From a virus (taxonomy: Duplodnaviria; Caudoviricetes), in IMG/VR virus record IMGVR_UViG_3300025276_000119, positions 1 through 31,933 of that record: a DNA stretch of 31,933 nucleotides. The stretch is one strand, 5' to 3'. Positions 5,015 through 28,814 of this stretch are shown piece by piece. The position numbers and the translations under genes were made by a program. Every line of letters starts with the position of its first letter. The stretch's first letter is position 1. The notes below the pieces were generated by a model. That model saw only the letters and a list, made by a program, of their open reading frames with translations, did no database searches and had not been told where the DNA came from.

Positions 5015-5051
5015 ATGGGGGTCGCTTCGTGCGACTCCTATTCTTTTTTTT
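5015..5051 (+). terminator. Intrinsic terminator between SSB and replication initiator
   Basis: atgggggtcgc-ttcgt-gcgactcctat stem followed by T8. Confidence 0.8.
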
Positions 5052-5075
5052 AACTAGAAACTAAAAAAAATTATA

Positions 5076-5708
5076 ATGATGGCTAAACGATTTACGGACA
5101 CCGCTAAGTGGAGCGAAGATTGGTTCTTAGAGATTAAAAACCCACACAAATTATTTTGGATTTACGTTTGTGATAATTGTAATCACGCAGGTATATTTAA
5201 GCCTAATAAGAGAATGTTCGAGTTAATCTTAGGTGCTAGGATTGACATAAATATGTTCTTAGAAGAGATTAATTCCGACAAACAACGTATTTTAGAGCTT
5301 GCCAATGGTAAATGGTACTTAACTAAGTTTATTGAGTTCCAATACGGAGGTAAGCTTAACGAGAATAATAGAGTGCATAAGTCTATCCTGGAGATACTTA
5401 TCGCAAACAACATTACTTGGGAAGAAAAATCTATAGTACCTCAATTAGAGGTGAAGGATTACAAGCCTAAGGTTAATCCTAACATACCTAGCACCATCAA
5501 CGAAGTTATTGACTACTTCAAGCTAAAAGGTAGCTCAAAGATAGAAGGTGAGAAGTTTTACTATTTCTACGAGTCAAAAGATTGGTTAGTAGGGAAAACT
5601 AAAATGAAGAATTGGAAGATGTCAGCTTCGGGATGGATTGCTAGGAATAAAAAAGGTAAGCCTGATTCGGATTATTTAGGTGGTCAACTTCAAGCAATGA
5701 AAAACTAA
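5076..5708 (+). CDS. Putative replication initiator / replisome organiser
   Basis: MAKRFTDT.KW..WF N-terminus, C-terminal FYYFYESKDW.VGK.KMKNWK..A.GW domain, directly upstream of the helicase. Confidence 0.7.
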   Translation: MMAKRFTDTAKWSEDWFLEIKNPHKLFWIYVCDNCNHAGIFKPNKRMFELILGARIDINMFLEEINSDKQRILELANGKWYLTKFIEFQYGGKLNENNRVHKSILEILIANNITWEEKSIVPQLEVKDYKPKVNPNIPSTINEVIDYFKLKGSSKIEGEKFYYFYESKDWLVGKTKMKNWKMSASGWIARNKKGKPDSDYLGGQLQAMKN

Positions 5709-9203: not shown

Positions 9204-9205
9204 GC

Positions 9206-9284
9206 ATTCTGCTATTATCCCCTCGTTATAGCGTTTTTAGTTTCTAGTAAAAAGGATTTCTCTTCGGAGTTGTCCTTTTTTTTT
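9206..9284 (+). ncRNA. Candidate trans-acting antisense small RNA (~80 nt)
   Basis: Promoter element, 5' hairpin (gctat/atagc), single-stranded gtttttagtttctagt complementary to multiple early-gene leaders, then terminator; 5' end approximate. Confidence 0.6.
9249..9284 (+). terminator. Intrinsic terminator
   Basis: aaaaagga..ctc-TTCG-gag..tccttttt plus T run. Confidence 0.75.
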
Positions 9285-9285
9285 A

Positions 9286-11869: not shown

Positions 11870-12205
11870 TTACGATATTTTAACTGTTCCTCTATCATTC
11901 CATAAAAAACCTGCATCTCTTGGCTCTCTTGTTGGTAGACTAGAAACTGTGGTTGCATTATTTAAATTTAAAACATCATCCGATTTATTTTCAACGGATT
12001 TTACTAATATATGAAAGAAAGCTCGAAGTTTTTCCGCTGTAATGTTAGCGTTTTTAGTTTCAAACATATCCTCAATCATATCTAATAACTCAGCTCGTGT
12101 TCTTTTTTCATCACTAGATACAGCGACTTTGGTTAAAGTATTTCTTTTAACTAAAGATTTATATCTATCTCTAATTGATGTTGCTTTGTAATCGTTTTTT
12201 GCCAT
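11870..12205 (-). CDS. Hypothetical virion-associated protein
   Basis: C-terminal LPT..P..AG.LWND.GTVKIS motif seen in phage fibre-type proteins. Confidence 0.6.
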   Translation of the reverse strand: MAKNDYKATSIRDRYKSLVKRNTLTKVAVSSDEKRTRAELLDMIEDMFETKNANITAEKLRAFFHILVKSVENKSDDVLNLNNATTVSSLPTREPRDAGFLWNDRGTVKIS

Positions 12206-12217
12206 TTTGTTTGTTTT

Positions 12218-14080
12218 TTAATTACCGTAATCGCTTGAAAAATCATCGCTAAATGATGAGCCTGCTGAATGAGTAGTTGATCCTGCGTTATAATTCTGAG
12301 TAACTTCCTCCTGAGTTAAAGCTCTGTTATATAGTCTTGAGTCGTCTATTAGGTTACTGTAAAATCTAGTATTTAATGAATCTCTACCTATATACTTTAC
12401 TAGACTATTCGTAATATTAGCATTAGTTGTTGCTGTGTCAGTCTGAGCTACAGAATCAACGTACATAGTGCATAGCGATGAATCTCTAGTAATAACTACG
12501 TGATACCAATCACCTGAATTAAATACATCGTTTGAGTAGAAAGGTATACTACCAACGTACCCTGCGAATTTACTAGTAGTATTAAAAACTCCAATACCTG
12601 CAGAACCTACATCTGTCATAGCTCCACCTAAAGCGATTATAGAATTTAAACTACTACCTCCCGATAAGTAACTAGCCTTAAGCCAAGTTTCAATAGTAAA
12701 ATCACCCGTACCAAAGTCGATCGAATTATCATCAGCCACCTCAGCGTAACCACTTCCACCCAAGTTAAAACTATGTTCTCTTAGTCTTAATGGATTACCT
12801 AATATATCAAAGCCTTTGTTGTTAGGCGCTTGGATTAGGATTATCTCAGGTGAACCACTTTTAGCCCAATCCATCATACCCAACTGAGGTATGGTAGGTT
12901 GTTTGTCATCGTATGTAGCTCCGTTAATCGTTCCGTTGTTGCCTTCTCCTGAACTATCGTAAGCAATCGAACCTGCACCCTCACTCATTGCCCAATAGCC
13001 TTTTAAATTAGATAGAGCAATAGTCGAATTAGTGTTGTCCGTTACGAGATGATTAGGGTTGTTGTAATCGAAGGTTGCATCGGCTTGACTTAAGATTGTG
13101 TCGTACCATTGAATATCAGTAATAAAACCATCGAAATGTATACCTGATCCACCAGGGGCGTCTGCTCCAATAAATAAAGATGTTGTATCAGTTAAATCTC
13201 CACTTTTAGATGATATATCTACAGGTGTTTGAGCAATACCATTTATGTAACATATTGCATTACCATTCCTATCTGCGGATATAACAACTCGTTGCCAAAC
13301 ACTTGAAGTTAATGTTCCTAAAGTAAAGGGAACATTGCTTGTTCCATCGTTTAATTCCACTCTTAATACATTACTTGAGTCTAAATAAAAAGTAAACCCC
13401 CTTGTATCTCTTTTATCAATTATTCTTTGTAATTTAGCTGAATTTATATAAATCCAAAAACAATAAGTAAAATCATCAGTACCAACATTTAAACTTGAAG
13501 AGTTTGGAACTTCAACATTATCTACTGAACCATTAAAATCAAGAGCCTTACCTGTAAACAATTTGCCTACATTTGAATTACCTGATTTGTCGGGAACGAA
13601 TTGGGCTACTTCTTTTACGGATACGTTTGAAATTTGAGCTAAAGTTGTTCCACCTGAATTTGAAGCTACTAACAAAAATCCATCAGTAGATACAGCTGTA
13701 ATAGTTTTTATTATATTACCTGTTGCTACCGAAAAATTACTAAGGTTAACACCTCCAACAGTAGCCCTTAGACCACTCCCTGAAGCACTATCTACGTAAT
13801 ACTCAACATCGTATCTATTCCCAATAGTTAAAGATAAGTTTGTGCTTATCAAGTTAGTCGTTCCTGCTACAGACGTATCAACATTAGCCACGCCACCTGA
13901 AATAGTCCAACCTGCTTGCTTAGTCCAATCTGTATCAGTAGCGAAGTCACCATTAACAACCAACTCCCTACCTAATGTTTCACTCGTTCTAAATCCAAGC
14001 CACATCTTCAAACCGCTAGTAATAATTGACTTACCTACGTTTCGGATTGCTCCTATTACATTTGTGAATGATATTATCAT
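12218..14080 (-). CDS. LamG/concanavalin A-like lectin-domain virion fibre protein
   Basis: Two LamG-like repeats (DFTYCFW..F.G.I.D..Y..LS; DFTIETW..WYHVV..IDDSRLYNRAL), an ELVVNGDF..SNVSVKEV module, C-terminal FSDDFSSDY. Confidence 0.8.
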   Translation of the reverse strand: MIISFTNVIGAIRNVGKSIITSGLKMWLGFRTSETLGRELVVNGDFATDTDWTKQAGWTISGGVANVDTSVAGTTNLISTNLSLTIGNRYDVEYYVDSASGSGLRATVGGVNLSNFSVATGNIIKTITAVSTDGFLLVASNSGGTTLAQISNVSVKEVAQFVPDKSGNSNVGKLFTGKALDFNGSVDNVEVPNSSSLNVGTDDFTYCFWIYINSAKLQRIIDKRDTRGFTFYLDSSNVLRVELNDGTSNVPFTLGTLTSSVWQRVVISADRNGNAICYINGIAQTPVDISSKSGDLTDTTSLFIGADAPGGSGIHFDGFITDIQWYDTILSQADATFDYNNPNHLVTDNTNSTIALSNLKGYWAMSEGAGSIAYDSSGEGNNGTINGATYDDKQPTIPQLGMMDWAKSGSPEIILIQAPNNKGFDILGNPLRLREHSFNLGGSGYAEVADDNSIDFGTGDFTIETWLKASYLSGGSSLNSIIALGGAMTDVGSAGIGVFNTTSKFAGYVGSIPFYSNDVFNSGDWYHVVITRDSSLCTMYVDSVAQTDTATTNANITNSLVKYIGRDSLNTRFYSNLIDDSRLYNRALTQEEVTQNYNAGSTTHSAGSSFSDDFSSDYGN

Positions 14081-14101
14081 AATTTAAAAGTTTAAATTAG
14101 A

Positions 14102-14356
14102 TTAATATAAGGCTAATATGTCCGCTGCATCTGTACCTGTATTAAATACTTTTTTAACTTGAACTGCTAATACAGAACCGCTTGCTAGATTTTTAAAGGT
14201 AACATCATCGCCTGATATAGTTGTTACTTTAACATCTCCACCTGTACCAATGTATAGAACAGCTCCAGGCGTTACTAATACTTCTAATACAGCAGGGTCA
14301 ACTACTACTGCGTGAATTGCTTGTTGTGTTACTTTGTTAGTTGGAATGAATCCCAT
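14102..14356 (-). CDS. Head spike base-like protein (RcGTA Rcc01079-like)
   Basis: LYIGTGGDVKV..GDDVTFKN..GSVL.VQVKKV..TGT.A.DI.ALY. Confidence 0.65.
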   Translation of the reverse strand: MGFIPTNKVTQQAIHAVVVDPAVLEVLVTPGAVLYIGTGGDVKVTTISGDDVTFKNLASGSVLAVQVKKVFNTGTDAADILALY

Positions 14357-14403
14357 AATTTAAGTGTTTAGTTGTTGTTGTTAATTAATTGTTTAAAGTT
14401 GTA

Positions 14404-14463
14404 AAAGGTTGTGAGAGAACTAGGAAGAAAAAGGTAGCAAAAACCAAGCCCTCCCACACCTTT
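14404..14463 (-). promoter_or_regulatory. Long RNA hairpin immediately 3' of the large tail gene
   Basis: aaaggt-gtgggagggcttgg pairs with cctagttctctcac-a-accttt; G-U pairs form only on the minus strand; 19-nt pyrimidine-rich loop. Confidence 0.65.
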
Positions 14464-17400
14464 AAATTTTTTCTAAAAAAATCTCTCCTCCGTAAATTGC
14501 ATCTGATGTTGCAGAAACTCCAACCTTTAAAAGGTAGTATTTACTAACCGCTATTGTTTCAGTAGTTGTAAGTGAATTTCCTATGTTACTTGTACCTGTA
14601 AATATATTTGTAATCGTTGTGTTACTTATATCGCCTTTAGTCAAAGAAACAGAAAGCGATGAACTTGTTGTAACTCTAAAGCCTGTAATCCTATAACCAA
14701 TAGGTAAAAAGACCATTGCAAAAATATCGTTATCCCTACCAGCGGTTGAATCTGGTTGTATGCTTCCTCCGCTGTTTCTTGTGTAAATATTTGCTGAAAG
14801 GTCTGCAGAAACACTAAAGTCACTAGGCGCAAGCATATATTTAAATACAGATCCTACTGTTTGAGTTCTAAACCCTGTATTTTCTCCATAATGTCTACCC
14901 TCTATATTGTCAGCATTTAAGAAGTCAGTTGTTTTATCGTACTCAAAACCTGCCTCAGCTCCAAACGCTCCGCTGTCGTTAAATTGAACCTCTTTATTTG
15001 AGCCTCCTGGAGTTCCACCACCTGTAATTATGTTGGTTAAATCTGAATTTACACAAGAAATAACACTTCCTATAGGATAAATTAAATTAGGAATAAAACT
15101 ATCTACTAGTATTTGAGTTACTCCAACAGCAATTTCACTTCGAGATGTTACTATAACACCATTTGTTCCATCAGGATAACTCAATCTTAATTTTTGATTA
15201 TCGTAAATTTTAGCACTTGTTAATCCATCTATTTCAAACTTATCTATCGCAAATCCCGAACCTATAATTGTATCAGTAATACCGTAATTATCACTAGCCA
15301 AGTTACTGTCATAAATTGAACTTGTTTGTAGGACATTTTGATTTACTATACTTGAAGGGGTTTGTGTGTTAGGAAGTATTAAAGATTTAAAAGCAGGTGT
15401 GTTGTCAACTATAATAGTGCTTTCAGCCCCTCTACCTACGTTATACCATTCACCGCTCATTATTTCGCTTTGAGCTTTAAATGTACCGCCTAAAAAAGAA
15501 TACAACTTAAAAGCTTCATCGTCATTTAAACTGTACTTTAACAAGCGAAGAGGCGATATGTTATTAGATTGAATTTCAGCTTGTAATATCTCTAACGGCT
15601 CTATTTGTAGAGCTAAAAACTCGTGAGTCAGTAGTTGAGTTATATTTCTAAGATTAGGTACAGCAGGATTACCTACCTGAAAGTCAACAACGGGTCCCCA
15701 TTGAGTAGCTACTTGTTTCTGTATAGAGTATAATTTATTTAGTTCCGTACCACCTAATTGTAACTCACCTAAATCATAAGACTCTGAAGATGGTACTTCT
15801 GTTTGAGATGAAGAATATTGGAAACCACCTGCTACATCTTCAAATTCTGTGTTACCATTTACGGATAAATTTATACTTACACAAGTTGTACTTTCACTTG
15901 TAGGAGTAGGGTTGGTTATGTCTTGATAAGAAAATTGCGGTTGGGATCCATTCAAATACTCTCCCACTTGGTAATAATCGTTATTTGCTGTAAGTTGAAT
16001 TGAAATATCTCCTTGAATATTTGGCGGTTCAATATTAGCAACAAAATGAATCTGGGTACTGAAAGATTTTCCAAGACCAAAACTACCTGGAGTAACGCCT
16101 GCCGAACAAGGACCTGTAGAGTCGTTTATTATTATACTACCACCTGTTACAGGAACACCTTGCGTTACAATACTATTAGCTACAAGACCATCAGAAAAAG
16201 TTGCCTGTAAAGCATTATTAACAGAATCGTTATTATAACCTCTTGCTATTATTACTGTTGCAGGATTAGTCACCCACTTTAATTCAGTAGGTGTGTTTAA
16301 GTTTTGATTTGTAAGGTATTTAGTTGTAACGCCATTAGTTACAGATATAACTAAAGTTGCTGTAGTTAAAAAAGAACTATTTCTTACCGTAGGTGTTTGG
16401 TTGTAAGGTCCTCCATCGGGTGCTGTTGTACCAAAAGTAAAATCACTTGCTAAAAAATTCTCAATATGTCTTGCAGAAAAATCTAAAGTAAGATATCCTG
16501 CTTGATTTGTTTCTACTTGAATACCCCCTGCTATAAATGAAGTTGTTAAATCTGCTGTAGGACTAATAAAAAAATCAGTTCCACCTAAAATAAAATCAGC
16601 AGTTACACTTTCGTAAGATGGTTCGTAAGTAAATGCACTACCACCTAGAATTACATTAGAGCTTTGATCTATTGTTAAAACTGTATTTATGTTACTTGGA
16701 GTTGTTGCTTGATAACCACCCTCTATAACATTTAACGTACCTTGTTCATTGTCAAATAAAGTATTAGGTTGTAGAAAGTTATAAAAACCCTCCGCTAAAA
16801 ATCCTATTGTATTAAATGTTTTTAAGCAGCCATTAAAAACATCAGACCTTTTATAGTTATAAGCTTCATCGAAATTTGATATATCACCCTCATCGTCATA
16901 TTTTGTTTCTTTAGCAAAAGCTCCTTTAGCAGCTCCGTAAACATAAAAAGGTCCTGTAGTGGCTGCTGCACCGTAATCTTGTGGTCGCCACCAATTTATA
17001 GCCGTACGAACCCAATTTTTAGAGGCTCCGATTGGTGTGTCTACTCCATCTATATCCATTACACTACCAAACTCAAAAATATGATCAGCAATAGATTTCG
17101 GTTGGTTTTTTTCTCCCTCTCCTGAAAGTGTGTCTTTTTTTAATTTAGTGTAATATCCGTAAGAATCAGTTGATGTTATCTTACTAACATAAGGGTAAGG
17201 TGTGTTTTGTATTGCATCAAACCCAGGTTGAATCCAACCATACCACCAGAGTTCATTTTCAGTTGTTCCGTTTTTATATATTTTTATGTAGTGATTTTTT
17301 TCTCCTTTTTTTAATAGATCGTTATAAAGAAAGTTTTCATCAGAATTGTTTTTAATATAAACATTTAAAATACATTCAGAGCCAATAAAAGTTCTATCTC

Positions 17401-17557
17401 TTGTACCTCCACTTCCTGACCATTTAATTACAAAACCCTCGCCTTGCATATCAAATTCAGTAGAAGTACCTACAAAGTCTTTTTGGTAAATATCAACGTA
17501 CCAAATAGTCCCTTTTTCGCCTTTAATTAAACTATTTCTAATCTTTCCAAATGCCAT
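14462..17557 (-). CDS. Large tail tip / baseplate-fibre protein (1031 aa)
   Basis: Directly follows the tape measure gene; beta-rich; PGGS..EVQFNDSG.FG motif. Confidence 0.7.
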   Translation of the reverse strand: MAFGKIRNSLIKGEKGTIWYVDIYQKDFVGTSTEFDMQGEGFVIKWSGSGGTRDRTFIGSECILNVYIKNNSDENFLYNDLLKKGEKNHYIKIYKNGTTENELWWYGWIQPGFDAIQNTPYPYVSKITSTDSYGYYTKLKKDTLSGEGEKNQPKSIADHIFEFGSVMDIDGVDTPIGASKNWVRTAINWWRPQDYGAAATTGPFYVYGAAKGAFAKETKYDDEGDISNFDEAYNYKRSDVFNGCLKTFNTIGFLAEGFYNFLQPNTLFDNEQGTLNVIEGGYQATTPSNINTVLTIDQSSNVILGGSAFTYEPSYESVTADFILGGTDFFISPTADLTTSFIAGGIQVETNQAGYLTLDFSARHIENFLASDFTFGTTAPDGGPYNQTPTVRNSSFLTTATLVISVTNGVTTKYLTNQNLNTPTELKWVTNPATVIIARGYNNDSVNNALQATFSDGLVANSIVTQGVPVTGGSIIINDSTGPCSAGVTPGSFGLGKSFSTQIHFVANIEPPNIQGDISIQLTANNDYYQVGEYLNGSQPQFSYQDITNPTPTSESTTCVSINLSVNGNTEFEDVAGGFQYSSSQTEVPSSESYDLGELQLGGTELNKLYSIQKQVATQWGPVVDFQVGNPAVPNLRNITQLLTHEFLALQIEPLEILQAEIQSNNISPLRLLKYSLNDDEAFKLYSFLGGTFKAQSEIMSGEWYNVGRGAESTIIVDNTPAFKSLILPNTQTPSSIVNQNVLQTSSIYDSNLASDNYGITDTIIGSGFAIDKFEIDGLTSAKIYDNQKLRLSYPDGTNGVIVTSRSEIAVGVTQILVDSFIPNLIYPIGSVISCVNSDLTNIITGGGTPGGSNKEVQFNDSGAFGAEAGFEYDKTTDFLNADNIEGRHYGENTGFRTQTVGSVFKYMLAPSDFSVSADLSANIYTRNSGGSIQPDSTAGRDNDIFAMVFLPIGYRITGFRVTTSSSLSVSLTKGDISNTTITNIFTGTSNIGNSLTTTETIAVSKYYLLKVGVSATSDAIYGGEIFLEKI

Positions 17558-17567
17558 ACCTTTTTCT

Positions 17568-19658
17568 TTATCTGTAACCTTTTCTTCGTTGCGCTCTATC
17601 GAATACTATTAATAAATCATCTCCTGTTATTCTTACGTCAGGAATTGCAGTTGCACCTCCACCGCCTAAAGCGTGGTTAGGTATAATCGTTCCGCTTGAA
17701 CCTGGAACAAATAATTCAGGACCTCGCTCTCCTACTACGCTAGGTCTACCTACAGGTGGTCGCCCTCCATCGGCAAAACCTAATACTTTCATAAAGCTTC
17801 CACCAAATGATTTAGCACCACCTAAACCTGTTAATTGCATTAAACCTGCGAATATAAGTGCTTTAGCTATCATCTTACCTATGTCTATTATGAATTGTTT
17901 AGCAAAAGTACCAAATTTTTCACCGAAACTTATGGTTTGTTCCTCCATAACTCCGTTAACCTCTACAAATCTAGTCTGTTTTTCGAACAAACTAACAAAA
18001 CCCTCAGAGAAATTAGAAAGCATATCCGTTCCTAACTCATTTAAGCGTGTTATTTGTTCGGCTGAAACATCTAATAATACCCCAATTTTAGTTAATTCTA
18101 ATGCTGAAAATTGTGTTTTATCAGAAGATGTATCTACTCTACCACCATTAAGTTCAGATTTGTCTGTTGAAAAATCGCCAACAGATGTTATTTTTTTTGC
18201 TGTTATTTTATTTGCTTGATTTTTTAAAGCTCTTTGAGATAAAAATAAATCATCAGCCGCTTTTTTAGCAGCTATCATACCTTTAGAGATTTTACTTAAA
18301 GCTGTTCCGCTTCCTGCATTTAGCATACGGAAATCATCCATCTCTTTATTTAATTCTTTTTGAGCATCAGCTAATTTATCTGCTTCTTTTGATAGTGAAC
18401 TAAAATGACTAACCGCAAGAATTGATGAGGCTGCTATTAGTGTCATTATACCATCAAAGGTAGCTAAAGCTACAAGTACTGGAGCTGCCGCCGTTGCCAT
18501 AGTAGCCAAAGCACCTCCTATAAGCGTAATTATTGGTACTATAGCAGCTGCAGCTAATAATAAAACCCCTAAACTAGCGGCGATTCCTGCTACAGTTAAT
18601 ATAGTATTTTGAGTGTCTTTATCTAAATCAGAAAATGTATTTGCTAATTCTGTTATCTTTTCTATTACAGGTAGTAATCTTTCCGCTAAAAGTTCACCAA
18701 AAACAATTTGCAATTCGTTTATCGCAGATTGCATCTTCTTAATCTTACCTTGAGTGGTAGATTCCATTTTATCTGCCATTCTACCGAGGGCAGTTGTATT
18801 GGTTTCGTACTCAGTAGTAAGTTCAGTTACTTTATCTAAGTTCTGAGAAAGTATAAGTAATTGATTGGCAGCAGTTTTACCTACCAAGGCATAGGCATCA
18901 TCAAGCGATAATGTACCCGAAGCCATATCCTCCAATATACCTGTAAATGGAACGCCCTCTTTATTGAGTTCCATAAATATAGTCCTTAAACCTGTACCTG
19001 CTTTAGAAGCTTTAATACCACTATCCATAAGGACACCCATCATAGCAGATAACTCTTCTACGGAAACTCCCACAGCATTTGCCGAAGCTCCTGCGTGACC
19101 AAAAGCAGTCGAGAAAGTGTTAAGTTGTATAGAGGACTTGGCTGCTGCTAAAGCTAAAGTGTTAGCTATACTAGCTGCATCGGTTGCTTCTAAATTAAAA
19201 GCGTTTATGGAAGCTGATACGGTTTCTGCTGCTATGGCTAAACCCTCACCAGTTGCTAAAGCTAAATCAGCTATAGCTTCTTGCATACCCATTATTTGGC
19301 TAGGATCAAAACCTTTACGACCTAATATAAGTTGTAGTTCAGAAAATTCAGAAGCAGTAAATTGAGTTGTCTTACCAAGCTCTCTCGCTGTACCCTCTAG
19401 TTTTTTCATTTCAGACTCAGTAGCACCTGTTACTACGGCTACTTTCATCATACCATCCTCAAACTCAACAAAGGTGTCTACGGCTGCTTTACCTAGTGCT
19501 GCTAAAGGAGCTGTAACACCAAAAGTCAACATAGAACCCATACGAGCTGCTTGAGAAGAGAATCTAGCTAAACTTTTATTAGCCGAACCCATCCCTTTTT
19601 CTAGCCCCTTTACGTTAGCTGCTATAATTATCGATATGGTCTTTACTGAAAAACTCAT
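17568..19658 (-). CDS. Tail tape measure protein (TP901-type core)
   Basis: TAPL..G, FEDGM.KV, ARELGKTTQFTASE, GIKASKAGTGLR, C-terminal FADGG..VGERGPELFVP. Confidence 0.92.
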   Translation of the reverse strand: MSFSVKTISIIIAANVKGLEKGMGSANKSLARFSSQAARMGSMLTFGVTAPLAALGKAAVDTFVEFEDGMMKVAVVTGATESEMKKLEGTARELGKTTQFTASEFSELQLILGRKGFDPSQIMGMQEAIADLALATGEGLAIAAETVSASINAFNLEATDAASIANTLALAAAKSSIQLNTFSTAFGHAGASANAVGVSVEELSAMMGVLMDSGIKASKAGTGLRTIFMELNKEGVPFTGILEDMASGTLSLDDAYALVGKTAANQLLILSQNLDKVTELTTEYETNTTALGRMADKMESTTQGKIKKMQSAINELQIVFGELLAERLLPVIEKITELANTFSDLDKDTQNTILTVAGIAASLGVLLLAAAAIVPIITLIGGALATMATAAAPVLVALATFDGIMTLIAASSILAVSHFSSLSKEADKLADAQKELNKEMDDFRMLNAGSGTALSKISKGMIAAKKAADDLFLSQRALKNQANKITAKKITSVGDFSTDKSELNGGRVDTSSDKTQFSALELTKIGVLLDVSAEQITRLNELGTDMLSNFSEGFVSLFEKQTRFVEVNGVMEEQTISFGEKFGTFAKQFIIDIGKMIAKALIFAGLMQLTGLGGAKSFGGSFMKVLGFADGGRPPVGRPSVVGERGPELFVPGSSGTIIPNHALGGGGATAIPDVRITGDDLLIVFDRAQRRKGYR

Positions 19659-19664
19659 TACTTC

Positions 19665-20029
19665 TTATATTTTATTGAACTTAATTTTATCGTACTTCTC
19701 TAGTACTTTTTGTATGTGTTCTTTTGAAGCTATTTCTTTTTTCGGCTGATACTTTTTGTCCCAAGGAAGAGGTAATATATCTTTAGGTTTAAGATTCTTT
19801 TTAGAGTGAGGTTGCAAACATCCCATTAATATAGTTCTAGTTTGCTCCCATTGGTTCTGTGACATTTGCTCTTGGTGCGTTTTAAAGCCGTTTAAGCGAT
19901 TGTTAAAGGAACGTGGAGTTAAGCCATACAATTCATCGTATGATAGCTCCAACATCCCTAAACCAACCTCTTCTAGCTTATCCCAGTCAATATCTCCCTC
20001 TTCGGAATCTATCTCCTCTCCCTCAACTA
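19665..20029 (-). CDS. Tail assembly chaperone, frameshifted (gpT-like) segment
   Basis: Frame of ORF 19665..19955 stays open back to the slippery site (VVEGEEIDSEEGDIDWDKLEEVGLG-MLELSY); LTPR motif. Confidence 0.8.
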
Positions 20030-20326
20030 CTTTCCCTCAGCTTGAGGTTGGTCGAGTTGGAACGCTTCAAATATTTCACCTAACTTAGAGAAGTCTTCAT
20101 TATCCAACCACTCTTCGATGTCAGCTATTTTATAAGCAAACTTTTGACCATCTTTCTTAGCTCCGTATTTTAAACCGTAATAAGCAATAACTCCAATGTG
20201 GTCTATCTCAGAACCTAACTGATTTAACTCGTTTAGCTTTAATCCCAACTTATTGCAAATTGCTTTTAAGCATAAATAACTAAACCTGATTGGTCGATTC
20301 TGACCACCTAACTCTACCTTTTTCAT
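20027..20326 (-). CDS. Tail assembly chaperone (gpG-like)
   Basis: Position between tail tube and tape measure genes; ends EGK* on GGGAAAG. Confidence 0.8.
   Translation of the reverse strand: MKKVELGGQNRPIRFSYLCLKAICNKLGLKLNELNQLGSEIDHIGVIAYYGLKYGAKKDGQKFAYKIADIEEWLDNEDFSKLGEIFEAFQLDQPQAEGK
20030..20036 (-). other. Programmed -1 ribosomal frameshift site GGGAAAG
   Basis: G GGA AAG TAG; identical to the lambda G/T slippery heptamer; -1 frame open into the downstream ORF. Confidence 0.88.
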
Positions 20327-20350
20327 AATTTATTTTAATTGTTGTTGTTA

Positions 20351-21109
20351 TTAATACGTTCCTTGAGTTGATACTCCTGTACCTGTTATTGAAACAGAAT
20401 AGGTTGTGTTATCCTCGACTCCTGCATCCATAGACGCACTTGTAACAATTCCTAAACCTTCCCATTTCACGCCTGTATCTCTTTCTGAAAATCTTACCGT
20501 AACTTCGCTACGAGAATTAAGATCATTAAAGAACTCTTTAAAGTCTAAATCAGCGTTAACATCTTGCAAAGCATCCGTAGATAATTCAAAAGACCTAAGT
20601 CCACCCTCATTGTCTTGAAATCCTCCACTATCTTTCGTGGTGGTATCTCTCAAGTCCATATTGAATGAAACAGAAGCAGATGTACTATGTGCGATTGGTT
20701 CGTAGTCGTTATTAGTTTGACCCGATGTAATTACAATAACCTCTATAGCACCTTCATTTATTGTAGCTGTACCATCTGCAAAACTTAAAGTGTTAACGTC
20801 CCCTGGAAAAGTGTTAGTAAAATCTAAATAATAAAAATCACCATCATCTATGATACTACCAGCTCCAGTATAACCATTAGCATTTAATGTAGCTCTTATA
20901 ACGGATAATAATGCAAAGCCGTTATTTGATACTGATAATGTTTCTAACTCAGCGACATTATTTCCTGAACTATCTGTCGTATTTAAAATTTTAACACTAC
21001 CAACACCACTTAAAGGGCTTACTTTTAAAACTCTAATTCTAGTTACTTGAGCTACGTCAGCAGGTGATTTTTTGTAAACCAATAAATCCGATGCGTTTAT
21101 AATTGCCAT
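20351..21109 (-). CDS. Tail tube protein paralogue with ~120-aa inserted domain
   Basis: Shares MAI.NA.D, P.AHSTSAS.S.NMDLRD.TTK.SGG, GGLRS.ELS and DAGVE.NTT.SVS.TGTG with 21134..21541. Confidence 0.85.
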   Translation of the reverse strand: MAIINASDLLVYKKSPADVAQVTRIRVLKVSPLSGVGSVKILNTTDSSGNNVAELETLSVSNNGFALLSVIRATLNANGYTGAGSIIDDGDFYYLDFTNTFPGDVNTLSFADGTATINEGAIEVIVITSGQTNNDYEPIAHSTSASVSFNMDLRDTTTKDSGGFQDNEGGLRSFELSTDALQDVNADLDFKEFFNDLNSRSEVTVRFSERDTGVKWEGLGIVTSASMDAGVEDNTTYSVSITGTGVSTQGTY

Positions 21110-21133
21110 AATTAATGGATTTAAAAGTTAATA

Positions 21134-21541
21134 CTATACGTTTTGGAACAACTCTCCTGTACCTGTTAAAGAAACAGAGAACGTAGTATTTTCTTCTACA
21201 CCTGCATCTATTGAAATAGAAGTTATAAAGGCGTTACCTGTATATACCATACCTGTAGCACTAAATTCTATAGCTACGGCTGTTCTTGCGTTCCAAGCTG
21301 TCCATAACTCAAGTATGTCAGCAGAACCTGCATCGGTTGCTATATCTACAAAAGAATCTCCACTTAATTCGTAAGAACGTAAGCCACCTAAGTTATCTTG
21401 CCATCCTCCTGATGATTTAGTTGTTGAATCTCTTAAATCCATATTCATAGAAATAGAAGCCGATGTAGAGTGAGCTACAGGAACTAAAGACCCTCCAACT
21501 GTTACTTTAAGAACTACGTCTGTTGCGTTTAAAATTGCCAT
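21134..21541 (-). CDS. Major tail tube protein
   Basis: D.TTK.SGGW..L.GLRS..LSGD, YTG.AFITSIS, FSVSLTGTGEL. Confidence 0.88.
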   Translation of the reverse strand: MAILNATDVVLKVTVGGSLVPVAHSTSASISMNMDLRDSTTKSSGGWQDNLGGLRSYELSGDSFVDIATDAGSADILELWTAWNARTAVAIEFSATGMVYTGNAFITSISIDAGVEENTTFSVSLTGTGELFQNV

Positions 21542-21553
21542 TTTGTGTTTGGT

Positions 21554-21964
21554 TTATTGTTTAATAATTAAACAGTTAAATATTACGTTTTTGTAGAATA
21601 CTTCGGCTGATTTAAAGTACTCGTCATCTAGGGTTTCAAACCTAAACTTCGCTACATAACTCACGCCACTTTCGGTGTATGTCACCTCAAACAAATCTAA
21701 AGCTTCTACTACCGCCTTAGCTTGATTATATGTTACTTCATATCCGTCTGCAAAACAAGCTATCCTAATCGATACATCACAAGAATTTAACGAGTTGTTT
21801 TTACTCATAAAGTTACTCACGTTCGTTATCTCAAATGTAGTAGATGGATAGTTTACACCTTGGGGTATAATGACAGGAAACACCTTATTACTGCCGTTAG
21901 CAGCAGTAAAGGTAGCTGTGTTATTCAACTTAGTTACTATTTCTTTTCCTATCTCTTGAAACAT
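21554..21964 (-). CDS. Tail terminator / completion protein (DUF3168-like)
   Basis: KVFPVI.PQ..YP, AKAVVEALD; position before the tail tube gene. Confidence 0.7.
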   Translation of the reverse strand: MFQEIGKEIVTKLNNTATFTAANGSNKVFPVIIPQGVNYPSTTFEITNVSNFMSKNNSLNSCDVSIRIACFADGYEVTYNQAKAVVEALDLFEVTYTESGVSYVAKFRFETLDDEYFKSAEVFYKNVIFNCLIIKQ

Positions 21965-21968
21965 ATGT

Positions 21969-22535
21969 CTATTTAAATCCTGCTTGTTTAAACATTCTAT
22001 CTAACATTTTAGATACATCTCTTTCTGCTGTTGAAGCTATATTAGAACCTTTTTCGTTCATAACTTCTTTGTAGTAATTAGGTTGGTTTTTTATTCTACC
22101 TACCGACTTACCGTTTTTGTGAGTCCTTTCCTTTGTGCCATTAACTAACATCGCAGGTAAATTTCTACTCTTTTTACCTTTGACCCAAGTTTGGTTAAGG
22201 TGTTTTAATCGTGTTCCAACAAATAATCCAGGGTCTTTAGACCTTTTAGCTGTAATTATACCAATCGAATCCGCTATAGATTTACCGACTGATTTACTTT
22301 TAGTAGAAGCATCGTATCTTTGACCAGGAACTTTGTTCTTACTTCCTGATTTGTACTTTGACTTCAAAGACTTTACTGCTTTCATTGCAGCAGGTCTTAA
22401 TGCTTTGTTAATTTTAGTTCTAGCTGTTTTCTCGTTTGCACCGAGTTTCTTTAAACTAGACATTGCTGCTTCAAGACCTTTAACCTTTATTACTTGGTCT
22501 TTAGTTACTTGAGGTTTCTTTGAAAATATACCCAT
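21969..22535 (-). CDS. HK97 gp10-like neck protein
   Basis: Basic protein, IKVKGLE..L, LV.GT.ER, G.I..QP; synteny. Confidence 0.65.
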   Translation of the reverse strand: MGIFSKKPQVTKDQVIKVKGLEAAMSSLKKLGANEKTARTKINKALRPAAMKAVKSLKSKYKSGSKNKVPGQRYDASTKSKSVGKSIADSIGIITAKRSKDPGLFVGTRLKHLNQTWVKGKKSRNLPAMLVNGTKERTHKNGKSVGRIKNQPNYYKEVMNEKGSNIASTAERDVSKMLDRMFKQAGFK

Positions 22536-26755: not shown

Positions 26756-27259
26756 CTAAATTTTTGAACTATTTTTAATTAATTTATAAGAAAGCCCTAT
26801 AAGTCTATGTATGTAGCTTGGACTATAACCCTTAATTAATGATATTTCTTGTATTTTTAGACCATATTCGAACCTTAAGTACATAACATCTCTCATTCCT
26901 TTGTGCTTTAAATTACTTAAATTATACCAAAGCAAGTCTGGCAATATATCGTAATTATCGCTTTTAAGGTGGTTTTTAGGCTCTCTAAGACGATAAGTGT
27001 TGTGAAAGGGACTCGATGTACTAATTACTTGATTGGTGACCACACGAGCCACGAAATACTCAAATTGGTTTGTTTCGTGCAAAGACTCAATCGTTTCATC
27101 CATTTGAGTCAGTAGAATTAGGTTTATATCTTGAATAAGGTCGTCTAAGAGGTGAATGTCGTTGTTGTTAGACAATACACTTGAGCAAATTGCTCTAATA
27201 CTTCCTTGATTGGAGGTGATTATTTCTTCTTTAGATAAAGAAAATCTCTTTGCTATCAT
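26756..27259 (-). CDS. Sigma-70/ECF-like transcription factor
   Basis: DDLIQD..L.L (region 2-like), RDVMYLRFEYGLKIQEIS..GYS...I (region 4 HTH-like); start uncertain (ATG 27259 or GTG 27271). Confidence 0.6.
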   Translation of the reverse strand: MIAKRFSLSKEEIITSNQGSIRAICSSVLSNNNDIHLLDDLIQDINLILLTQMDETIESLHETNQFEYFVARVVTNQVISTSSPFHNTYRLREPKNHLKSDNYDILPDLLWYNLSNLKHKGMRDVMYLRFEYGLKIQEISLIKGYSPSYIHRLIGLSYKLIKNSSKI

Positions 27260-28814
27260 ATCCTGTTCCACCTTGATTCTTGTTTTTCATCGACTCGCTT
27301 AATCCCATTAACACAGATACTATACCGTCAATTTTGTCGTTTGATTTTGCCTTATTAGGCTTTACGTTTCCTGCTGGATCTTCGGTTAACACTACGTTAG
27401 ACATCATCCATCTTAGCACAGGGTTTCCTGCGTGACGAATGTTTCCACTTAAAATTAGTGTTTCGAACTCTTTGGTAGCAGGTGACATAGTTCTGTAACC
27501 TTGACCTACAGGAATCATTGGGCATCCCTCTTCTGTAAGGTCGATTACGATTTGAGAAGCGTTCCATCTATCGTAGGCTATCATTTTAATATCGTATAAT
27601 TCGCTTAAATCACGAATCTTTTGCTTTATGTAGTTGTAATCGCAAACGTCACCAGGAGTAAAGATTACGTGACCTTGCCTGTGCCACTTAACGTAATCTA
27701 CTTTATCTCGTTCTGAGCGTTTGTAAGCGTTCTCTTCTGGTATAAAAAAGAACGGTAATATGTCGTAGCCATCGTTATCGTCAGGAAACAAAAGCGATAA
27801 ACAAGTAACATCTCGTGTAGAAGCTAAATCTAAACCTCCGTAACAAGCTCTTCCTTTAAGGTAAGCTTCATTTACAGGTACATCACCCTCCATCCACTTA
27901 TCGTCACTAATAAATTTAGTTTCGTTAGCAACCCATTGATTTAGGTGCAATCTACGGAAAGTGTTTTCGTATGAAGGTTCGTTTTTAGCTTTAACCGATT
28001 GTTGTTGCATATACTCTTCGGTGATGATAGTACCGAAGCCTGGGTTGGCTTTCTTTTGCACCTCAACGTCAAAGATGTCATCGTCTTTACCTGCCTCATA
28101 CACAACGCCTAAGAATGAGTCGTCTTCGATAGTACCCTCAATAAGTTTCTTCGCATAATCGTAAAGCTCCTTACAAATGTGGTCTTTTTGATGACCTGCA
28201 CCTGCTGTGGTAATACCAAGCATAAGAGGCTCTTTCCTTGCTCCCATAGAAGTAAGTAAAACATCATATAAATCTCTGTTTTTGTGAGAGTGTATCTCAT
28301 CAAGTAAACAACAAGAAAGGTTTAGTCCGTGCTTAGTATCTGCGTCTGCTGAGATTACTTTGTAGTACGATCCAACTTTATCGTAAGTAATTGAATCTCT
28401 GTAAGTACCTGCTCGTTTAAGTAACTCAGGATTTTGTAAAACCATTTGCTTTGCGATAGAGAACGATAATCTAGCTTGTTCTTTATCGGCTGCTGCGGAA
28501 ACAATCTCAGCTCCTTTCTCTCCATCTGAAAAAAGCATATAGAGAGCGATACCAACCATTAAATTAGTCTTACCATTCTTACGAGGTATAAACACAAAGC
28601 ATTGTCTAAATCGTCTTAATTTGGTCTTCTTAGATTTCCAACCGAATAGAGGGCGGATAATGTCATCCTTTTGCCACTCTTCAAGTATAAACTTCTGACC
28701 TGCTAAATCGCCTTTAACGTGTTGACAGAACATCTCGATAAAGTCTACAGCTCTCTTGGCTGACTTCTCATCGAAATACCATTTGGTTTCGTCAATGTGT
28801 TTAAGGTTATTCAT
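27231..28814 (-). CDS. terL: Terminase large subunit
   Basis: LEEWQ, Walker A PRKNGKT, LLDEIH, ITTAG, GGLDLA, YDRWNA, KIDG. Confidence 0.96.
   Translation of the reverse strand: MNNLKHIDETKWYFDEKSAKRAVDFIEMFCQHVKGDLAGQKFILEEWQKDDIIRPLFGWKSKKTKLRRFRQCFVFIPRKNGKTNLMVGIALYMLFSDGEKGAEIVSAAADKEQARLSFSIAKQMVLQNPELLKRAGTYRDSITYDKVGSYYKVISADADTKHGLNLSCCLLDEIHSHKNRDLYDVLLTSMGARKEPLMLGITTAGAGHQKDHICKELYDYAKKLIEGTIEDDSFLGVVYEAGKDDDIFDVEVQKKANPGFGTIITEEYMQQQSVKAKNEPSYENTFRRLHLNQWVANETKFISDDKWMEGDVPVNEAYLKGRACYGGLDLASTRDVTCLSLLFPDDNDGYDILPFFFIPEENAYKRSERDKVDYVKWHRQGHVIFTPGDVCDYNYIKQKIRDLSELYDIKMIAYDRWNASQIVIDLTEEGCPMIPVGQGYRTMSPATKEFETLILSGNIRHAGNPVLRWMMSNVVLTEDPAGNVKPNKAKSNDKIDGIVSVLMGLSESMKNKNQGGTGYDSKEIFFI

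Follow-up and report, generated by a model that had tools for sequence, protein, structure and literature searches.

A conserved stem-loop among the late genes of a long-tailed phage is predicted to pair with the start of the tail assembly chaperone gene

The linear virus record IMGVR_UViG_3300025276_000119, analysed here over its whole length of 31,933 bases (the window; completeness rating 47%), belongs by gene content to an HK97-type, long-tailed phage. Its minus strand carries a long stem-loop (14404..14463) at the end of the gene for the probable tail hub. Comparison with related loci indicates that this phage hairpin is genuine, conserved and so far uncatalogued, and that its predicted target is well supported; its function we infer from sequence. 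We propose that it is an antisense RNA, which would pair through the 9-nucleotide (nt) core of its loop with the start of the tail assembly chaperone gene and lower translation of the chaperone and of the downstream tail-initiation genes. We put the probability of this reading at roughly 0.6. A preliminary description of this DNA had named the leader of the hub gene itself as the target of the loop; the conserved partner is predicted to be the chaperone start instead.

The stem consists of 19 base pairs (bp), three of them G-U, with one U.U mismatch and one bulged A, and its 5' arm reaches into the stop codon of the gene for the hub (14462..17557, minus strand). Folding places a U-rich terminal loop of 19 nt at 14425..14443, identical to the one first described. 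The core CUACCUUUU, the predicted seed, occupies the 3' side of this loop (14429..14437). The minus-strand fold has an energy of -22.7 kcal/mol (z = -4.31), and none of 200 shuffled sequences folded as well, whereas the plus strand reaches only -12.9 kcal/mol (z = -1.89). These values agree with what had been said at first of a stem of about 20 bp after the hub stop codon and of G-U pairs that favour the minus strand. The hub coding sequence holds a second copy of the loop core within its last 70 nt (14529-14537, minus strand).

Viral, metagenome and genome collections were searched for related loci with the proteins of the hub and chaperone genes. Each search contributed at most 80 loci, so the sampling leans to close relatives. 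They contain 58 distinct versions of the hairpin, which fall into 13 stem families with one common loop core and lie either right after the hub gene or after at least one further gene, up to 3.3 kb on. The loop measures 15-21 nt in all 58. Between the core and the 3' arm there are 0-2 unpaired nt in 56 of 58 versions, and 5-11 unpaired bases, mostly U, precede the core on its 5' side. The messenger RNA (mRNA) strand folds better than its complement in 51 of 52 versions, by 6.8 kcal/mol on average, and 45 of the 52 contain G-U pairs.

The stems change with compensation while the core stays fixed. Across 22 divergent hairpins the ten invariant columns are CUACCUUUU and one further U. In an alignment of 14 sequences, both sides have changed in 10 of 18 pairs and 79.6% of the cells are paired, a value reached by none of 500 shuffles; this alignment is a subset with a structure named by hand, and kinship among its sequences can inflate the covariation count. 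RNAalifold returned no consensus structure for an alignment built from sequence only, because the stem families do not align with each other. Neither motif-free scans nor two covariance models turned up a comparable hairpin with a different core, and scans around divergent chaperones, aimed at an altered loop core, found none either. One of the models (R2) was built from an alignment in which about 10 of 48 rows are reverse-strand or noise.

The predicted target lies in the open reading frame (ORF) 20027..20326 (minus strand, 99 residues), between the major tail and tape-measure genes. Judged from the sequence, this ORF is a gpG-like G/GT tail assembly chaperone. The assignment rests on its position, on the slippery heptamer G_GGA_AAG directly before its stop codon (20030..20036, minus strand) with a -1 frame open to 19665 as the GT extension, on a distant homologue that matches PHROG 183 'tail chaperone protein', and weakly on fold. 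Both the shift-prone heptamer and the role of the G and GT products are described in PMC5009743. The structure model resembles the HK97 chaperone 2ob9 weakly (Z 4.3, root-mean-square deviation 3.7 over 79 residues, tied with unrelated top rows), and Foldseek gave no significant match for it. The slippery site varies in phages that lack the hairpin: part of one such clade has one more codon after the heptamer, and locus L079 has a different heptamer. In Cellulophaga phage phi10:1 (KC821618.1), a chaperone-like ORF at about 14990-15340, between gp084 and gp086, is unannotated in the record.

All 11 bases at 20314..20324 (minus strand), positions +3 to +13 of the chaperone mRNA within codons Lys2-Lys3-Val4-Glu5, are complementary to the loop. 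This match was overlooked in the preliminary description. The target lies upstream of the hairpin, about 5.9 kb away. The 9-mer complement of the core occurs 151 times on the sense strand of 141 representative sequences (1.57 Mb), and 129 of these copies are at a chaperone start. Site and hairpin occur together: of 65 phages with the hairpin 62 have the site, against one of seven without the hairpin. These 72 are the scorable part of 157 distinct start regions; the remaining 85 have too little downstream DNA, and one locus (L154) was scored by hand on 1.3 kb. An initial count of 67 had given 55 with hairpin and site, three with the hairpin only, two with the site only and seven with neither. 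Where the hairpin is missing, no gap separates the genes that follow the hub, as far as the lysis-type genes, so its absence is real.

Codon usage at the site is consistent with a constraint on the nucleotides. When synonymous changes are counted on a tree of 140 chaperone genes, Val4 has three, the lowest number for 13 four-fold sites (median 15), and Lys3 stays AAG with three changes, against a median of nine for 20 two-fold sites. In codons 2-6 of other late genes AAA outnumbers AAG (342 versus 126), so Lys3 retains the less used codon. Three separate lineages (L395/396, L400/402/405 and L111/117/119/120) have lost the in-frame site by an amino-acid or codon change and carry AAAAGGUA in the chaperone leader instead; two of the three have sister branches with both copies. 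The leader of L400 has the same spacer-plus-AUG layout as the hub leader of the window. Variant purine tracts (GAGAGAG, AAGGAA) stand in the chaperone leaders of L127, L264/L182 and L226 where relatives have AAAAGGUA. Just 3' of the target, codons 8-12 form a small local stem (20292..20305, minus strand; GGUC/GACC, with compensatory, synonymous GGCC/GGCC and GGCG/CGCC variants) that leaves the target single-stranded. It is also found in most hairpin-less phages and is hence not specific to the system.

Several observations weigh against this reading. No base-for-base compensatory change between the loop core and the chaperone target was found, and the support consists of presence or absence and of site turnover. 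The hairpin-less cases amount to few independent events, namely one clade of 14 tips, L079, and L071, which keeps the site; this makes about two concordant losses and one discordant, a dependence that the Fisher test on the initial count of 67 ignores, and its value is given no weight. The hairpin is dispensable, as one clade lives without it. Conversely, it is kept beside imperfect sites in L264/L182 (one mismatch) and in L216 and L217 (8-nt core); L127 is without the full site, and its hairpin region is not covered, so its loop may have changed as well. The first codons are constrained in any case (Lys2 0 changes, Gly8 4). By duplex energy the chaperone site is never first, ranking 2-21 among 310-1304 sites at 14 loci; in the window, among 1304 late-strand sites, the hub site ranks third and the chaperone site fifth, and neither is unique. 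Stem changes are mixed within families, with three kept and four broken in one and 13 kept and three broken in another. The 58 hairpins were chosen by their core, so the invariance of the core rests on the model and motif-free searches. Finally, a G stands directly 5' of the core in 54 of 58 hairpins although the chaperone site has an A opposite it, with which it cannot pair; this indicates another constraint.

This G leads to an alternative in which the loop is bound by a protein or by another RNA, be it a host RNA or the mRNA for early replication. The match to the chaperone would then merely follow from the conserved Met-Lys-Lys-Val-Glu start. The chaperone N-terminus is indeed conserved as protein in 61 homologues. 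In addition, AAAGGUAGC at 5524-5533 (plus strand), codons 151-153 of the replication gene 5076..5708, complements the core together with the conserved G. It is present in eight of 12 distinct homologues of that gene: eight of the ten from phages with the hairpin and neither of the two from phages without. AAAGGUAGC may be a third target, reached in trans, or just the coding of a conserved Lys-Gly-Ser. Its place deep in the coding sequence counts against the alternative, which also leaves unexplained the site copies in leaders, which stand only before the chaperone and hub genes and are present where the codons have changed. We consider it unlikely.

Kissing contacts that enhance translation occur in plant RNA viruses. 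A pairing of this kind could be real and non-repressive here, closing the mRNA from chaperone to hub into a loop that stabilises it or recycles terminating ribosomes to the chaperone start. The targets lie upstream on the same strand, and in each of 52 hairpins the core sits 7-49 nt past a stop codon, close enough for a terminating ribosome to touch the stem. Against this, a 30S subunit must occupy the very stretch that the target covers, be it the start codon or the first five codons, and initiation in Bacteroidetes is tuned by mRNA structure (PMC6847099). For the small RNA OppZ, long-distance pairing in cis was tested and did not explain the regulation (PMC7398697). A non-repressive contact of this kind seems quite unlikely to us.

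The hub gene itself as the main target fares less well. It encodes 1031 residues directly after the tape-measure gene (17568..19658, minus strand; PHROG and Pfam PF10145 matches), and its probable role as tail-tip or baseplate hub follows from this position. The protein has no Pfam or PHROG match, and its model is of low confidence, with a mean predicted local distance difference test score of 42.5; the best Foldseek rows are baseplate and tail-tip proteins, none of them significant (E 0.024-0.12). In the window the case looks strong. The loop 12-mer at 14425-14436 is, as originally claimed, the exact complement of 17557..17568 (minus strand; -11 to +1, 12 of 12 bases), which covers the 10 nt that separate the stop codon of the tape measure from the hub AUG, and these two sites are its only copies in the window, against 0.04 expected. 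Duplex folding also reproduces the claimed extension across a 2-nt bulge, at -16.4 kcal/mol, slightly stronger than the chaperone site (-15.4).

The relation does not hold in most homologous loci. Among 48 distinct hub start regions of hairpin-bearing phages, AAAAGGUA occurs in seven and only the G-U-tolerant RRAGGUA in 16; 25 have neither, despite an unchanged core. The longest complement between loop and hub leader is at most 7 nt in 36 of 44 pairs, with the window as the maximum. In L061 the hairpin differs from that of the window by one base and the chaperone start is identical, and the hub leader has no complement. What stands of the preliminary claim is the kind of mechanism, a loop complementary to a start region in the same operon, which has strong comparative support; the hub as the named target does not hold in most relatives, and we judge a loop that serves mainly to limit the hub protein very unlikely. 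The hub leader is best read as a second site in some lineages, the window included. In several of these the short spacer is little more than AAAAGGUA, and AAGGUA is found in 29 of 67 hub start regions versus five of 691 other late ones, an enrichment that may partly stem from the Arg-rich end of the tape measure. This reading draws on the finding that no other late-gene start region is enriched in the motif (1 of 691). We accordingly list 17557..17568 as a secondary, lineage-specific predicted target.

An ordinary leaky terminator or nuclease-blocking stem between the tail and lysis genes, with a chance match in the loop, would explain why the hairpin is intergenic, right after a stop codon, and why a run of 3-4 U stands at the base of the stem in 50 of 52 hairpins. 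The stem may well do such a job in addition. As its main function we hold this to be very unlikely: a terminator would not need an invariant 9-nt loop core, and the co-loss with the chaperone site would go unexplained. The clear terminators of this phage (23552-23533 and 9682-9667) have 4-nt loops and long U-runs, unlike the 15-21-nt loops and short U-runs of the hairpin. The terminator scan does not call the hairpin, genes continue downstream of it, and its 3' end is not a Rho-independent terminator of the operon. Within the late block the scan predicts one terminator, 3' of the capsid gene, and it makes no call outside genes between the chaperone and the hairpin.

A signal at the DNA level can hardly be credited, be it a promoter of Bacteroidota type within the loop or a pair of inverted recombination sites on either side of the segment from chaperone to hub. 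In its favour, TACCTTTT resembles the -7 box TAnnTTTG (consensus from PMC7366714), a TTG stands 20 nt upstream in the largest stem family, one phage protein is sigma-like, and loop and target are formally inverted repeats. Against it, the last G of the box is present in none of 58 hairpins and a TTG at the -33 spacing in 19 of 58, so that the features of a sigma-A promoter are lacking, no promoter-like copy precedes the first late gene, the strand-specific, G-U-rich stems point to RNA, and there is no recombinase among the 53 annotated ORFs of a record rated 47% complete. DNA contigs of four sequencing runs over 12000-22000 showed no strand-changing joint among 15 of 30 joints; such contigs drop rare forms and could miss an inversion. 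A decoy for the anti-Shine-Dalgarno sequence was also considered and rejected, as the match to the 16S 3' end is poor and the sites are not at Shine-Dalgarno (SD) spacing.

The antisense reading gains indirectly from a sister element with which the replication operon ends. Upstream of a terminator, a single-stranded tract (9205-9285, plus strand) is complementary in 19 of 20 bases to 5048-5067 (plus strand), the leader of ORF 5076..5708. When about 230 sites are ranked for complementarity to the replication-gene leader, the best one precedes the downstream terminator by no more than about 60 nt in seven of nine distinct leaders, 2.3-4.1 kb downstream of the leader. In L080 this site comes second and L047 has none; three of the seven positives are close relatives. 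Tract and leader covary between lineages base by base, more strongly than is seen for the tail hairpin. This is probably the other case of start-directed antisense control to which the preliminary description alluded, and its two parts do covary in relatives. At the level of sequence, it shows that this phage group uses complementarity between downstream RNA and gene starts, and it thereby raises the odds for the tail hairpin.

The late genes run along the minus strand from 29517 to about 9700, in the order terminase, portal, protease, capsid, connectors, two major tail genes, tape measure and lysis-type genes; every ORF from 29517 to 9693 is on this strand, and the replication genes are on the plus strand. 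The two tandem major tail protein genes (20351..21541, minus strand; PHROG 1407) lie upstream of the chaperone target, and AAGGUA occurs in none of 143 of their start regions. The two paralogues share a 61-nt repeat, 780 nt apart. A sigma-factor-like gene (26756-27271, minus strand) stands between the large terminase and portal genes, and many relatives have one (28 distinct start regions). A related record, IMGVR_UViG_3300020469_000117, has two chaperone loci (L172 and L165) on one contig of 36.5 kb, possibly an assembly concatemer or a terminal repeat.

Where the sequencing runs that contain the record name a habitat, it is marine; no RNA data set is listed among those with 13000-21500, which has no bearing on expression. 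SD-like words are present in two of 51 leaders and an A at -3 in 29 of 51, a pattern known from Flavobacterium (PMC6847099). Among cultured phages the chaperone matches phi10:1 alone, at 33% identity. From these traits we infer a host in the Bacteroidota. Bacteroides is described as having no obvious Hfq (PMC7366714), and the host is probably without it. The one chaperone match in the genome collection (L143, JAYQEC010000017.1) would name Porticoccaceae; it was not accepted as host evidence. This 26-kb contig of the same phage family, with the hairpin, sits in a Porticoccaceae genome bin and is probably mis-binned phage DNA. No cultured phage with the system was found: the hub has no match, and the chaperone matches phi10:1 alone, in which R2 finds no hairpin. 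A loose DNA pattern searched in bacterial genomes yielded nothing beyond chance matches, an estimated 22,000 or so.

If the hairpin is an antisense RNA for the chaperone start, the late transcript would pass through the hub gene and carry the hairpin, which would act either in trans, once processed into an RNA of some 60 nt that its stem protects, or while still part of the long mRNA. The 3' side of the loop would present a seed shorter than one helical turn and the 5' side a U-rich linker, a layout that would permit a short helix without threading. The seed would pair with an unstructured, A-rich start region, so Hfq would not be needed, and pairing within -11 to +13 would block initiation of translation. 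G and GT would be held down directly, the tape measure and hub through coupling or polarity, and the abundant tube genes upstream would be spared. In some lineages, the window among them, the hub start would offer a second copy of the site. Since the hairpin would be made only when transcription passes these genes, the circuit would be a negative feedback. Since the tube genes have no site, its effect would be discoordinate, with many tube subunits and few initiators. Given the position of the core shortly behind a stop codon, ribosomes could open the stem on a translated message; such proximity is to be expected anyway in compact phage genomes.

The closest known parallel is found in OppZ and CarZ of Vibrio cholerae, small RNAs derived from 3' untranslated regions, in which RNA from downstream in an operon is complementary to an internal gene start of the same operon (PMC7398697). 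There, upstream genes are spared, expression becomes discoordinate and a negative feedback arises (PMC7398697); the same is predicted here. The hairpin likewise shares the strand and the late block of its target, lies downstream of it and has a conserved seed complementary to a start. It differs in belonging to a phage structural operon, in holding the seed in the loop of a 20-bp stem rather than in a 5' single strand, in lying inside the late gene block and not at a terminator, and in a host that is probably without Hfq (PMC7366714). OppZ-type RNAs are stable products released by RNase E cleavage; for the hairpin, processing is a prediction. The tract at 9205-9285 is nearer to the OppZ layout, and compensatory change between seed and target is seen for that tract; for the tail hairpin, in which no changed core was found, the evidence is co-loss and site turnover.

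Among phage RNAs, the c4 RNA of P1 and P7 and the CI RNA of P4 are encoded on the same strand as their targets, with the complement likely in loops and within their own transcription unit (PMC12197685, PMC4825925). They control immunity or antirepressor genes close by and have Rfam models (PMC12197685, PMC4825925). The hairpin, by contrast, lies 5.9-7.6 kb downstream of the tail gene start, and the likeness is one of working and not of membership. At the hairpin in the window, Rfam gave no match up to E 5, and in six relatives none at the gathering score. STnc6030 of prophage BTP1 is another phage RNA acting on a tail gene mRNA; unlike the hairpin, it is a long cis-antisense RNA from the opposite strand and serves superinfection exclusion (PMC12197685). 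As in lambda-type G/GT control, the target gene has G_GGA_AAG and an open -1 frame, and the amount of chaperone matters to tail assembly (PMC5009743). The frameshift sets the ratio of G to GT, whereas the hairpin would set the total amount at initiation, a layer that was not found in the literature searched. That literature, which misses most subscription papers, holds no report of the hairpin element. The motif was not found in three supplementary files of a catalogue of viral structured RNAs (PMC10690425) and may be in its other files.

It is tempting to extend the idea further and to see in these phages a general, protein-free design of end-to-start antisense control, used at least twice in one 32-kb genome. 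One case would reach back some 6 kb along the message to meter tail initiation (chaperone, tape measure and hub) against the tube protein, the other would meter the replication gene through the terminator-linked tract, and the tail loop may link late to early expression by acting on the replication mRNA in trans. We regard this broader picture as doubtful.

How hundreds of tube subunits and few tape-measure and tip proteins arise from one late gene block in long-tailed phages is only partly explained. If our reading is true, a conserved RNA directed against the chaperone start would add another layer of control, beyond the ratio of G to GT. It would also bring OppZ-like feedback to a phage, and to a phylum that is apparently without Hfq. 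The hairpin itself defines a structured RNA family with 58 distinct members that is not in Rfam.

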